DNA of 58,364 nucleotides. Origin: Microseira sp. BLCC-F43. Its GTDB lineage: Bacteria > Cyanobacteriota > Cyanobacteriia > Cyanobacteriales > Aerosakkonemataceae. Within the stretch, counting starts at the first letter, position 1. Each line of letters opens with the position of its first letter. The notes beneath the pieces are model-generated. The model saw only the letters and a list, made by a program, of their open reading frames with translations. It was not told where the DNA came from and made no database searches. This document shows, one piece after another, positions 7,350 to 12,730 of the stretch. The DNA lies in contig NZ_JBHFNP010000225.1 in NCBI RefSeq assembly GCF_041929235.1, positions 1-58,364 on the forward strand, read 5' to 3'. The position numbers and the translations under genes were made by a program.

Positions 7350-7575
7350 ATGAACTTGGATGCGATTGTCATCGGTAGCGGCATCGGCGGTCTAACCGCC
7401 GCCGCCTGGGTCGCCCGTGACGGTAAGCAGGTATTGGTCGCAGAAAGTCACGCCATTGCGGGCGGCGCGGCTCACAGCTTCGCGCGGCGCGGCTTTACCT
7501 TTGATTCTGACCCCTCGTTCTACTGCGGCCTCAGCGACCCGCGTAGCCCATATCCGGTGTGACAGGTTCTCGATG
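7350..7575 (+). pseudogene. Duplicated 5' fragment of the CrtI-family FAD oxidoreductase gene. It forms a direct repeat with 12452..12730.
   Basis: Encodes MNLDAIVIGSGIGGLTAAA..FTFDSDPSFYCGLSDPRSPYPV and then a stop. It is nearly identical to the N-terminus of 18390..19859, and homology continues past the stop. The same upstream palindrome and leader as at 18305..18389 precede it. Confidence 0.6.
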
Positions 7576-7907
7576 GCTGAATCGAGCGATCTTGGCAGCT
7601 TGAATTCTGATTTTGAGAGAAGGCGATCGCTTTTTCACCAACTCAGGCGCGAACGCGAGTGCGGAAGGGAGGCATATCGCTCTCACACACGCACATCCAA
7701 CTTGGCGCAACCAGGCAATCAACTCGAAACATTTCTTCATCTTTCACTGAATTAAAAGAATCGTCGGCTAAAACAGATTAGGAGATTTTCCGCCAACTCA
7801 ACTCCTATGCCTGGGGTAGCCAAGCGATCAACCAAAACCCCTGTAGAAATCCCATCAAAGGACAAAAGCATCAAGTTACCAAAACTTTTATCACCTTCTT
7901 TAAGAGC

Positions 7908-10532
7908 ATGGAAATGAATACAGCCGAACGTAAATCTGAATTACCGGGGACGACGAGTGGCGTTATTCGTCTCAAACCACAGCAATTTATTCACGTTTTA
8001 GATAACAACACGGGTGTCACCCGGCTAGAAGTTGGCCCGCAAACCATTACCTTGCGCGACCACGAACGACTGATTTTAAGACCCGAACCGATGATTATTG
8101 TGCCGCCTCGGCATTATTGTTTGGTGGCAAATCCAGTCCTAAGAGATGAAGAAAATCAACCCATTTCTGATGCCCACGGTCAGGTGAGATTGCGCTATGG
8201 GGATGAAGAAATTCGCTTTGCCCAAGACCCTTTTCCACTCTATCCCGGTGAGGAATTATTAGGAGAAGTAACGCGGCTGGAGGTTGTAGAAACTAATCAA
8301 GCTTTGCGTTTAAGAGCAATTCGCGATTTTACTGAAACCATCACCGCAACAGTTGATGGAGAAATTGAAACTCAAACAATTAATCGTTTGGCAGGAGATG
8401 AATGGTTATTTGAAGGGCCAAGAACTTATATTCCCCGCGTGGAAGTTGAAGTGGTAGAAACTGTCACGGCGCAGGTGATTAAACCTAACCAAGCTTTGCG
8501 ACTTATAGCACGTCAAAGTTGCACCGATAGACAAGGAAATCGCCGTCGCGCGGGTGAAGAATGGCTGGTAAGAGAAGAAGGCGCTTATTTGCCTGGAGTT
8601 GATGAATCCGTAGTTGGTACGATCAAGGCTTACGTTTTAACAGAACGGAAAGCATTACATTTGATGGCAAAACGCACGTTTACCGATATTTTTAATCGCC
8701 AGCGCAAAGCGGGAGATGAATGGTTGGTAACGTTTGAAGATGCAGAAATTCACATTCCCGATGTCTATGAAGAAGTCGTGAGAGAAGTGGAAATTACCAC
8801 TTTGGGCGATAGAGAATGGTGCATTGTTGTTAACCCGATTGATAATTTGGGCAAACCGCAACTGGGAATGCGAGAAGTTCGTCAAGGAAGAACTTCTTTT
8901 TTCTTGCATCCAGGTGAGTCGTTAGAAAATGGGATTCAAAAAGTTTACGTTTTAGGGGAACAAGAAGCACTTTTACTCAGAGCTAAAGAAGCCTTTACTG
9001 AAGGAGAAGCTGATAACTTAATTCAGCATCAGCCGGGAGATTTGTGGATGATTTCCGGGCCGAGGGATTACATTCCCCGCGTGGAATTGGAAGTGGTGGA
9101 AAAACGGAAAACGATTCCTTTAGATAAGAATGAAGGGATTTACGTGCGGGATATTCAAACCGGAGAATTAAGGCTGGTTAGCGGCCCGCAAGCGTATATG
9201 TTAAGCCCTTACGAAGAACTTTGGGAAAAAGTTTTAACGCCTGTTATTGAAGAATTGCTCAGCCAAAAAGGCGATCCAATTTCCGAGCGAGGTCAGCATC
9301 GTAGAGAAGGTGTTGAAAGCGTTCAGAGAGATAAAACGAGAGCGGTTGTTTTTCACGTGCCGCAAAATGCAGCGGTACAAATTCACGATTATAAAGAAAG
9401 AAGCGCGCGCACTGTTTTTGGGCCGGATTTAGTGATGTTGGGACCGGATGAATCTTTTACGGTGCTGAGTTTATCTGGTGGGAAACCTAAGCGACCGAAT
9501 TTGATTAAGTCTCTGGCTTTATTATTAGGGCCGGATTTTATGACGGATGTATTTACTGTCGAAACATCCGATCATGCTAGGCTACAACTTCAATTATCTT
9601 ATAACTGGTATTTTGATGTTGACAGACACGACGAACAAGCCGCAGCAAAATTGTTTCAAGTGCCGGATTTTGTAGGAGATGCTTGTAAAGCGATCGCATC
9701 TCGCGTGCGAGGTGCGGTAGCGGGAGAAAAATTCGACGAATTTCATCGCAATTCAGCTAGAATTATTCGCACGGCTGTGTTTGGAACCGATGAAGAAGGT
9801 CGGATTCGAGACGAATTCCGGTTTAGAACTAATAATTTGGTCATCACCAACATTGACATCCAATCAGTCGAACCTGTGGATGAAAGAACGTTAGAAAGCT
9901 TGCAAAAATCGGTACAAATCGCGATTCAAATTACCACCGATGCCCAAGAAGCAGCCGCCAAACAAGATGCAGAACGCATCGAACAAGCTGCTAAAGCCAG
10001 ACTGGAACGGCAAGTGATTATTGACCGAGGTGCAGCGGAAGGCGAACGCAAAAAACTGCTGGAATTACAGGCAGAAAATGCGGCAATTGAAGCAACAGGA
10101 AAAGCCACGGCAGAAGCCAGAGCGAAGGCAGAAGCATCTCGGATTCAAGGGGAATTAGCGGTTAATTTAGCCCAGCAAGAAGCGGAAGCGGCAAGAATTC
10201 GCGCCGAAGCAGAATTGGCTCAATTAAGAGCGCGTCAGGAAGCCGAATTAGCTCACCAACAAGCGCTGATTAATCTGGAGATTGAAAAAGCCCAGCGAAT
10301 GGCAGAAATCACCAGCGAAGAATTTAGCCAAAAAGTAGCAGCAATTGGCCCAGAAACCCTGAAAGCGATCGCGCAAGCTGGCCCAGAAATGCAGGCGAGA
10401 CTTTTGCAAGCATTGGGTATACAAAGCGTTTTGATTACTGATGGCAGAAATCCGATCAATCTATTTAGTACAGCTCAAGGTTTGATTAATCCAGTTCAAT
10501 CTCAGTTACCTTCAGAATCCCAGCAATCTTAG
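7908..10532 (+). CDS. mvp: Major vault protein (MVP) homolog. It has MVP repeat domains, a shoulder domain and a C-terminal coiled-coil cap helix.
   Basis: 874 aa. It is collinear with eukaryotic MVP along its whole length. Examples are FIHVLDNNTGVTRLEVGPQTI, VPPRHYCLVANPV, QVRLRYGDEEIRFAQDPFPLYPGE, GDEWLFEGPRTYIPRVEVEVVE, repeated NQALRL/ALHL blocks, HARLQLQLSYNWYFDV, PDFVGDACKAIASRVRGAVA, NSARIIRTAVFG, and the cap-helix region AIGPETLKAIAQAGPEMQARLLQALGIQSVLITDG. I matched these to my memory of human and rat MVP, not to a database. Confidence 0.85.
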   Translation: MEMNTAERKSELPGTTSGVIRLKPQQFIHVLDNNTGVTRLEVGPQTITLRDHERLILRPEPMIIVPPRHYCLVANPVLRDEENQPISDAHGQVRLRYGDEEIRFAQDPFPLYPGEELLGEVTRLEVVETNQALRLRAIRDFTETITATVDGEIETQTINRLAGDEWLFEGPRTYIPRVEVEVVETVTAQVIKPNQALRLIARQSCTDRQGNRRRAGEEWLVREEGAYLPGVDESVVGTIKAYVLTERKALHLMAKRTFTDIFNRQRKAGDEWLVTFEDAEIHIPDVYEEVVREVEITTLGDREWCIVVNPIDNLGKPQLGMREVRQGRTSFFLHPGESLENGIQKVYVLGEQEALLLRAKEAFTEGEADNLIQHQPGDLWMISGPRDYIPRVELEVVEKRKTIPLDKNEGIYVRDIQTGELRLVSGPQAYMLSPYEELWEKVLTPVIEELLSQKGDPISERGQHRREGVESVQRDKTRAVVFHVPQNAAVQIHDYKERSARTVFGPDLVMLGPDESFTVLSLSGGKPKRPNLIKSLALLLGPDFMTDVFTVETSDHARLQLQLSYNWYFDVDRHDEQAAAKLFQVPDFVGDACKAIASRVRGAVAGEKFDEFHRNSARIIRTAVFGTDEEGRIRDEFRFRTNNLVITNIDIQSVEPVDERTLESLQKSVQIAIQITTDAQEAAAKQDAERIEQAAKARLERQVIIDRGAAEGERKKLLELQAENAAIEATGKATAEARAKAEASRIQGELAVNLAQQEAEAARIRAEAELAQLRARQEAELAHQQALINLEIEKAQRMAEITSEEFSQKVAAIGPETLKAIAQAGPEMQARLLQALGIQSVLITDGRNPINLFSTAQGLINPVQSQLPSESQQS

Positions 10533-12169: not shown

Positions 12170-12451
12170 TTCTGGAACTCTCCTTACCTATTTTGGTGGA
12201 AATTAATAGTAACGCTTTAGCTTTAGATCGCCTACACTCCTATCCCATTTGCGCTTAAAATACTCAGGACTTAGGCAAACTCAAATCTTGCACCACGGGA
12301 GGCAGCAGCCCACCGGATCTCGTTCCCAGGTTCAACCTGGGAACGAGAATACAGAGGCTCTGCCTCAATGTGCAAGATCTCAGCAAAGAAACCCGGTTTC
12401 TGGTAACGCCCTTGCGTCAGTCCTGATACTCTGGCGATCGCTTTTTCCCCC

Positions 12452-12730
12452 ATGCACAATTGCCAAGTTATTGTCATCGGTAGCGGCATCGGCGGTCTAA
12501 CCGCCGCGGCTCGAATCGCCCGTTACGGTAAGCAGGTATTGGTATGCGAAAGTCACGCCATTGCGGGCGTTGCGGCTCACAGCTTCGCGCGGCGCGGCTT
12601 TACCTTTGATTCTGACCCCTCGTTCTACTGCGGCCTCAGCGACCCGCGCAGCCCATATCCGGTGCGACAGGTTCTCGATGTTCTGGGAGAATCTTTGCCA
12701 ACGGTTACTGATGATATCGTGTCCGGTTGA
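12452..12730 (+). pseudogene. Second duplicated 5' fragment of the CrtI-family oxidoreductase gene.
   Basis: Encodes ..IVIGSGIGGLTAAARIARYGKQVLVCESHAIAGVAAHSFARRGFTFDSDPSFYCGLSDPRSPYPVRQVLDVLGESL and then diverges. It shares the derived residues SDPSF and SPYPV with the 7350 fragment. The full gene reads SGPSF and SLNPV at those positions. Confidence 0.6.

Follow-up and report, generated by a model that had tools for sequence, protein, structure and literature searches.

Truncated copies of an oxidoreductase 5' end on either side of a major vault protein gene in Microseira sp. BLCC-F43: probable relics of two different recombination events

The stretch of DNA analysed here, called the window, comprises positions 1 to 58,364 (58,364 nucleotides, forward strand) of contig NZ_JBHFNP010000225.1 from the cyanobacterium Microseira sp. 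BLCC-F43 (assembly GCF_041929235.1). Its lineage is Aerosakkonemataceae (Microseira-like), not Nostocales as supposed in an earlier interpretation made without database searches (the sequence-only reading). A repeat search and alignments found the 5' end of one gene, OX, in three copies within the window. The intact OX gene (18390–19859, plus strand) encodes a 489-aa FAD-dependent oxidoreductase of the phytoene-desaturase / carotene-isomerase-like family. The two truncated copies, fragments A and B, bracket a gene for a major vault protein (MVP) homologue and a gene of the alkaline phosphatase (AlkP) superfamily. As the best explanation of the whole, A and B are probably non-functional relics of two different recombination events in the interval between cobN and OX, a rearrangement hot spot full of miniature inverted-repeat transposable elements (MITEs) and tandemly duplicating PEP-CTERM genes.

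An MVP-based scan, taking one genome per species, gave 61 loci. Four of these belong to sister species: Cyanobacteria bacterium UBA11372 (L001), Microseira wollei NIES-4236 (L002), a Phormidiaceae metagenome-assembled genome (MAG; L042) and an uncultured MAG (L059). Aerosakkonema funiforme (L074) and Argonema galeatum (L075) represent outgroup genera. The features of the locus are as follows, with 'a' and 'b' denoting two different upstream regions and starts of OX.

5221–7575, unstranded: segmental duplicate U1, with the PEP-CTERM/DUF3466 gene R1, a divergent intergenic region, the 'a' upstream region and OX fragment A; collinear with 16561–18615 (U4)
7019–7260, unstranded: 242-bp insertion in U1, not in U4, rich in AGAAACCCGG-type palindromic repeats
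7350–7575, plus: fragment A, a pseudogene copy of OX codons 1–75 with 'a'-type start (MNLDA) and an in-frame TGA at codon 71
7573–7575, plus: junction of A and the MVP block, an ATG common to OX (..CTCGATGTTC) and the MVP upstream region (..AAAATGGCT in L001), i.e. 3-bp microhomology
7576–7907, plus: MVP's own upstream region, conserved in L001 and L002, with the second copy of a leader motif (b'), GGCGATCGCTTTTTCACC, at 7622–7639
7908–10532, plus: MVP homologue, 874 aa, with Vault, Vault_2/3/4 and MVP_shoulder domains (E 1e-67 to 1e-13)
10551–10789, unstranded: two MITE-like palindromic elements between the MVP stop and the AlkP 3' end, the point where all five related genomes diverge
10790–12169, minus: type I phosphodiesterase / AlkP-superfamily gene (Phosphodiest Pfam match), convergent with MVP, within an indel (10551–12230) relative to L042
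12231–12451, plus: native OX leader 'b', in parts 12231–12265 and 12432–12451, split by a MITE
12266–12425: the 160-bp MITE in leader 'b', with terminal inverted repeats (TIRs) AGGACTTAGGCAA and AGGACTGACGCAA and a target-site duplication ATACTC at 12260–12265 and 12426–12431
12452–12714, plus: fragment B, with native start MHNCQV (12452–12469), then OX positions 16–260 with A-type disabling changes
12714–12824, unstranded: dispersed MITE-family copy starting at the 3' breakpoint of B, 80% identical to 32642–32749, inverted
13123–17717, minus: R2, R3 and R4, PEP-CTERM repeat genes in a tandem array, and partial intergenic copies, together the DNA inside the direct repeats formed by B and the OX start
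18301–18389 and 18390–19859, plus: 'a' upstream region and intact OX; 18405–18649 is the direct-repeat partner of B

Copy A aligns 7261–7575 with 18301–18615 (90.2% over 315 bp), which covers 89 bp of upstream sequence and positions 1–226 of the open reading frame (ORF). Copy B aligns 12470–12714 with 18405–18649 (93.1% over 245 bp, ORF positions 16–260), and A and B are 93.4% identical across their common 211 bp (ORF positions 16–226). Matches of such length and identity cannot have arisen by chance. The first 18 nt of B (12452–12469, MHNCQV) have no homology to the full OX start, and the last 16 nt of the interval first assigned to it (12715–12730) are read-through into a dispersed repeat. 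The sequence-only reading had placed the two copies at 7350..7575 and 12452..12730, with MVP and a convergent AlkP-family gene between them; both points are borne out, the latter by Pfam domains, and the homology of B runs from 12470 to 12714. An assembly artefact was rejected for the A-MVP-AlkP-B order, since independent JGI metagenome contigs, 99.6–99.9% identical, cover cobN, A, MVP, AlkP and B.

Fragment A is the truncated end of the 2.35-kb duplicate U1, and R1 is paralogous to R4. U1 and U4 match over 5221–7018 and 16561–18291 (79%) and over 7261–7575 and 18301–18615 (90%) – A is thus collinear with its parent over coding and non-coding DNA. It is truncated at +226 and free of constraint: the G54D change lies within a motif invariant in all orthologues, and nonsynonymous or nonsense changes make up 6/6 differences from the orthologous fragment in M. 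wollei NIES-4236, which is the pattern expected of a pseudogene. The nonsense codon is present in the A of the window and not in that of M. wollei. The junction of A with the MVP block is identical in M. wollei, and homology of the window with L001 begins at the junction base, position 7573. The fusion of A to the upstream region of MVP is older than the divergence of the window from M. wollei, and therefore nothing at this locus is recent.

The origin of fragment B is different. Its homology to the full OX gene begins at +16, and its leader 'b' and first six codons are unrelated to 'a'. Leader 'b' is found in B and in the intact OX genes of L042 and L059 (..CTCTKGCGATCGCTTTTTCCCCC-ATGCASAAT / MQNCEV); in L042 it precedes intact OX 96 bp 3' of the MVP stop. 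It aligns with the OX leaders of both outgroups, where leader and first codons read ..CTCTCGCGATCGCTTTTTTCAMC-ATGCAAAAT / MQNLDV. By these alignments, B is evidently the original OX 5' end with its native leader retained, and the 'a' start of the window's intact OX is a replacement brought with the PEP-CTERM module. At its 3' end, OX homology in B stops at +260, exactly where the dispersed MITE-family element starts.

A motif of leader 'b', GGCGATCGCTTTTTC(A/C)CC, occurs just twice in the window: at 12433–12450, 18 nt 5' of the start of B, and at 7622–7639, 285 nt 5' of MVP. The MVP-side copy is also found in L001, L002 and L059. This combination of HIP1 (highly iterated palindrome 1) and TTTTTC is very rare elsewhere, with 3 stray matches in 1.16 Mb of fetched loci. 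The two copies may reflect MVP landing in the OX leader with a short duplication.

The relation of A, B and the full gene was addressed in a 211-nt core polarised by the outgroups, comparing the A of the window, B, the A of L002, intact clade genes (n = 5) and outgroup proteins (n = 16). Derived states are distributed as follows.

ORF 59, 60, 161, 200–202: shared by the A of the window, the A of L002 and B (L20R, G54D, LN67-68PY; three clusters), n = 6
ORF 90–93: A lineage only (window and L002), n = 4
ORF 54, 57, 116: private to B, n = 3
ORF 58, 70, 211: private to the A of the window, n = 3
ORF 194: private to the A of L002, n = 1

All intact clade genes (5/5) and outgroup proteins (16/16) read AALLAR, FDSGPSF and SLNP, and none of the six states shared by A and B occurs in any intact orthologue examined. 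SDPSF and SPYPV, seen in both fragments and named as derived in the sequence-only reading, are thus derived against every one of these sequences, and its view of A and B as copies of each other, not products of independent decay, finds its support in the six polarised positions. Raw pairwise identity was rejected as an arbiter, since it does not resolve the three copies and outgroup polarisation is needed: within the core A and B differ at 14 positions, B and the full gene at 14, and A and the full gene at 19. A greater similarity of the fragments to the full gene than to each other had been named as counting against their common origin; that case is borderline, since B is equidistant (14 differences each) and only the polarised characters group it with A. 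The polarised positions support descent of A and B from a common disabled copy, or their homogenisation by gene conversion. The cluster specific to A is flanked by shared clusters and also occurs in L002, and therefore the common origin or the conversion predates the split of the window from L002.

Gene orders in the window and its relatives are given below, where R is a PEP-CTERM repeat gene, IG an intergenic region, oxA and oxB fragments A and B, and (-) the minus strand.

Window: cobN(-), R1(-) IG a-oxA, MVP, AlkP(-), b-oxB, R2 R3 R4(-) IG a-OX
L002: cobN, R IG a-oxA, MVP, R..., then contig end
L001: NACHT gene, MVP, R IG a-OX (intact)
L042: MVP, 96 bp including leader 'b', intact OX, ..., dam
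L059: cobN, three other genes, truncated MVP, ..., b-type intact OX
L072: R, IG, a-type intact OX

Beyond the MVP stop, the five genomes all diverge from one another within only 5–18 nt. Intact OX bodies of a-type and b-type are equally near to the OX of the window (92.2–93.3%). In the outgroup genera cobN and OX are 2.4–4 kb apart, compared to 13.3 kb in the window, and neither A. funiforme nor Argonema galeatum has an MVP, PEP-CTERM or AlkP gene between them. Because MVP is lacking there in Aerosakkonema and Argonema, it appears to have been added to the ancestral cobN-OX interval. The window was also searched for genes that flank MVP or OX in the relatives and outgroups (NACHT, MarR, PMT_2, a 320-aa gene 5' of OX, NYN and a 687-aa membrane ORF), and none was found.

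The MVP protein is well above the Pfam gathering cut-offs for its family (PF01505, 224 bits, cut-off 27; PF11978, 186 bits, cut-off 25), with further matches to PF17794 (125 bits), PF17795 (122 bits) and PF17796 (49 bits). Its nucleotide identity to the four sister species is 90–92.6%, with cobN and OX at ca. 92–95%, and the proteins of L001, L002, L042 and L059 are 92–97% identical to that of the window. Composition is native: GC content is 0.451, GC at third codon positions (GC3) 0.361 and Kullback–Leibler divergence (KL) 0.075, and the corresponding values for AlkP are 0.475, 0.430 and 0.055. The window has a mean GC content of 0.462, with genes ranging from 0.39 to 0.55, and both genes fall inside its range of GC and codon usage; compositional foreignness was rejected on these grounds. 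MVP is resident at this locus across the clade, with ordinary divergence. A separate compositional feature is the strongly negative GC skew (down to -0.50) over ca. 1 kb of cobN (2000–3000).

MVP homologues in the 61 mostly filamentous cyanobacterial species loci are 67–97% identical to that of the window. The gene is truncated and frameshifted in L059 (10001–10853; aa 594–874 remain) and apparently split or interrupted in three more distant species (L043, L049, L050), and it is therefore decaying in some lineages. Contigs assigned by binning to Anaerolineae, Actinomycetota, Thiomargarita, Thermoflexales and Anaerolineales (L036, L047, L055, L056, L057) also carry homologues, 71–80% identical to the cyanobacterial protein; the cause is either transfer between phyla or faulty binning.

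AlkP is an indel of its own, set among MITEs and defined by filled and empty sites relative to L042. No AlkP gene is found within 10 kb of MVP in 61 of the 61 species loci. Full-length relatives occur outside the clade, the closest at only 72% identity; the one homologue whose context was examined lies beside IS605-type genes in an unrelated setting. On contig L067, from another member of the clade, a 687-aa multi-pass membrane ORF with no Pfam match (440–2503) replaces the 5' 45% of an AlkP gene and is divergent to an OX start of MSLDV type.

Several repeat families populate the interval. The element at 12266–12425 has TIRs and a target-site duplication, is matched by an empty site with a single ATACTC in L042, and belongs to a family with multiple copies – it is a MITE, and the window holds 6 copies of its TIR motif where 0.02 are expected. 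Elements ending in AGGACT(T/G)A(G/C)GCAA lie at 12266–12425, 25055, 45367–45469, 46996, 10688–10790, 12714–12824 and 32642–32749. A 33-nt perfect palindrome, AGAAACCCGGTTTTT-CTA-AAAAACCGGGTTTCT, is present at 7265–7297, 18305–18337 (ca. 50 nt 5' of the OX start) and 24945–24977, with half-sites at 6594, 6664, 7055, 7223 and 12388, scattered in intergenic modules. A 32-nt repeat, GCGAACGCGAGTGCGGAAGG(C/G)AGGCATATCGC, is direct at 7016–7047 and 7649–7680 and inverted at 15957–15989 and 17928–17960; it belongs to the intergenic modules of the PEP-CTERM genes and recurs upstream of MVP. A search against Rfam (E-value mode) over 5000–20500 gave sub-threshold noise only, and a promoter and terminator scan of 6400–13200 gave fewer promoter-like sites than shuffled sequence.

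The PEP-CTERM/DUF3466 genes are four paralogues, all on the minus strand (5229–6419, R1; 13123–14397; 14598–15746; 16569–17717), three of them in the tandem array. They are built of 132-nt (44-aa) tandem repeats, with five full or partial copies of one intergenic module among them, and their GC-rich repeats (GC3 0.53–0.60) are the real compositional outliers of the region. The cobN-side module of L002 is 88.8% identical to the R4 module of the window and 78.3% identical to its positional orthologue, R1.

B and the present OX start may be explained by a single crossover. The donor would have been a segment with a PEP-CTERM array, an 'a' 5' end, a MITE junction and an a-type OX start that was truncated at +260 and already disabled, either as a circle cut out of a tandem array or as a divergent haplotype taken up by transformation. 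This segment would have recombined homologously with the resident b-type OX, with a crossover in about the first 40 nt that the two have in common, a 5' position attributed to selection for a working OX. Such an event would yield an intact OX with the 'a' start and an undamaged body; fragment B, with the native leader, an A-type damaged body and a stop at +260 against the MITE end; and 245-bp direct repeats (B and the OX start) around the PEP-CTERM array. The repeats are placed as in a single-crossover (Campbell-type) integration: B is tied to native upstream sequence and 18405–18649 to native downstream sequence, where the conserved genes Fer4/NIL and dam follow intact OX, and the 245-bp repeats enclose the array and the replacement 5' end. 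MVP would lie between A and B because its place in the clade is directly upstream of the native OX start. The meaningful repeat pairs would then be B and the OX start, and U1 (5221–7575) and U4 (16561–18615), not A and B.

Several points weigh against this account. At two synonymous sites the fragments agree with b-type genes – ORF position 75 (core 60) is T in A, B, L042 and L059, and position 43 (core 28) is C in A, B and L042 – which do not fit a simple tree and call for homoplasy or further gene conversion. The truncated AlkP copy of L067 is 88% identical and lies 2.4 kb from the MSLDV-type OX start, so that AlkP may be ancestral at the locus rather than inserted. The order of events cannot be fixed with about six genomes, mostly on short contigs: a window-type ancestor followed by deletions, in which B would have recombined with the OX start to excise the array in L042 and L059 and B would have been lost in L001 and L002, is roughly equal in parsimony to insertion into a b-type ancestor. 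The crossover would have to lie in a narrow 5' segment, plausible only through selection for the undamaged gene. The donor structure ending at +260 is found in no other genome; a junction of +260 to a MITE and a PEP-CTERM 3' flank is absent from L001, L002, L042, L059, L067, L072 and a metagenome scan, a very thin sampling. That scan used a conserved 40-nt pattern taken from the repeated 5' segment of OX; it hit 3 contigs only, all of L059 type, and gave no new arrangement.

The explanation of the bracket put forward in the sequence-only reading was that a foreign cassette of MVP and AlkP had been inserted or recombined between copies of a duplicated promoter and 5'-gene module, with A and B as flanks. 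What speaks for it is that the direct repeats bracket exactly these two genes and share derived changes, that the outgroup genera lack MVP between cobN and OX, and that MVP is patchy in bacteria, with horizontal transfer already discussed (bioRxiv 10.1101/872010). The shared ancestry of A and B and the addition of MVP to the ancestral interval stand; the cassette, the unit and the module do not. The cassette model is already contradicted by the sister species, which hold MVP with neither fragment (L001), with A alone (L002) or with intact OX in the place of B (L042, L059). Only A shares upstream sequence with the full gene, the leader of B being the unrelated, native OX leader, and AlkP is missing beside MVP in the four sister species and in 57 other cyanobacterial loci. 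MVP has diverged from the sister species to the same extent as the flanking core genes, and the shift in GC or codon usage that had been suggested as a check across 7575..12450 was not found, so that the block is no genomic island by composition. No transposase or integrase was found in 7350–12730, where only MVP and AlkP exceed 100 aa (Pfam: Vault/MVP_shoulder, Phosphodiest; smaller ORFs were not scanned), leaving no such ORF to encode a recombinase; ARAGORN detected neither tRNA nor tmRNA genes anywhere in the window, and thus no attachment site of the kind used by genomic islands. The block is not bounded by insertion sequences (IS), its repeats being OX gene fragments, and the whole block with these ends is seen nowhere else among the 61 species loci – the only identical copy is that of the same strain or species in metagenomes. 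A foreign cassette is thus very unlikely.

Two other explanations were considered. In one, A and B were truncated independently, A by duplication of the PEP-CTERM module and B by decay of a once-complete native OX after a complete 'a'-type copy had been acquired, and intrachromosomal gene conversion then spread the shared substitutions. This would suit the mosaic structure of B, in which the leader and +227–260 resemble intact genes and the pseudogene changes resemble A, as well as the two sites that are incompatible with a simple tree and the signs of concerted evolution in the PEP-CTERM and intergenic modules (the greater identity of the L002 module to R4 than to R1). However, the cluster at ORF 90–93 of A, between shared clusters, is absent from B, and the change at 116 in B is absent from A; any conversion therefore predates both, and hence the split of the window from L002. 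The equal distance of the a-type and b-type bodies from the window also argues against a long coexistence of two full paralogues, and this explanation is possible but doubtful. In the other, the fragments are functional, with the 'a' promoter of A driving MVP (promoter capture) or the 70-aa and 92-aa ORFs, which carry a Rossmann motif, being expressed. Fragment A is retained in two species and lies 333 bp 5' of MVP on the same strand with no terminator found between them by the scan, and both fragment ORFs are called as genes in JGI annotations. Function is nonetheless highly improbable given the nonsense codon in the A of the window that is lacking in L002, the 6/6 nonsynonymous or nonsense differences, the G54D change in the conserved FDSGPS motif of B and the MITE between its leader and start codon. 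In addition, MVP keeps its own conserved 332-bp upstream region, and no A precedes MVP in L001. A broader scenario, which seems improbable, joins two ideas: that OX has two alternative 5' ends or promoters (native 'b' and PEP-CTERM-linked 'a') exchanged among sister species by homologous recombination, and that MVP originally landed in the HIP1-containing leader of OX, duplicating a motif of ca. 17 nt (7623–7639, 12434–12450). If true, this would be a hint that insertion was associated with HIP1 and that MVP and OX are linked in their regulation.

Read as the relics of two recombination events, A and B mark a real but ordinary multi-step recombination scar, which is instructive in several ways. 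The bracket is no evidence that MVP arrived recently on a cassette with a phosphatase partner, and it should not be used to infer the function or mobility of MVP. The locus is a clear worked example of how the surroundings of a core gene are reshaped by growth of the PEP-CTERM family, by MITEs and by homologous recombination, of how such remodelling can swap the promoter and first codons of that gene, and of how relics of these events persist across speciation. The a and b 5' ends, the A junction and the filled or empty MITE site form a marker set for strain-level evolution in Microseira.

Compared to known systems, the MVP protein itself is not new. Cyanobacterial MVP homologues have been described (Daly et al. 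2013, PMC3762200; bioRxiv 10.1101/872010), and the 874-aa protein of the window has the same full set of Vault repeats and shoulder domain as the Oscillatoriales-type homologues; what was examined here is only its genomic neighbourhood, which is not conserved outside the Microseira clade. The locus resembles a composite transposon or genomic island in that two direct repeats bracket an accessory-looking gene pair, but the repeats are gene fragments, not IS, and the arrangement is not found as a unit elsewhere. Fragment A has the features of a pseudogene left by segmental or tandem duplication – collinearity that runs from one gene through an intergenic region into 226 bp of its neighbour, a microhomology junction, a stop codon, only nonsynonymous changes and inheritance by a sister species. 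It differs from such pseudogenes in that it is not adjacent to its parent, with MVP, AlkP, B and three PEP-CTERM genes between them, and in that it has exchanged sequence with a second relic, B. The likeness to single-crossover (Campbell-type) integration, or duplicative insertion, lies in the two direct copies of a gene segment that flank an insert, B with native upstream sequence and 18405–18649 onward with the native downstream body, and in reversibility, since recombination between the repeats would give the arrangement of L042 and L059. It differs from that system in that no circular or donor intermediate was observed and in that the 5' end and promoter of the gene were also swapped. The pair of repeats that fits is B and the intact OX start, rather than A and B as first proposed.

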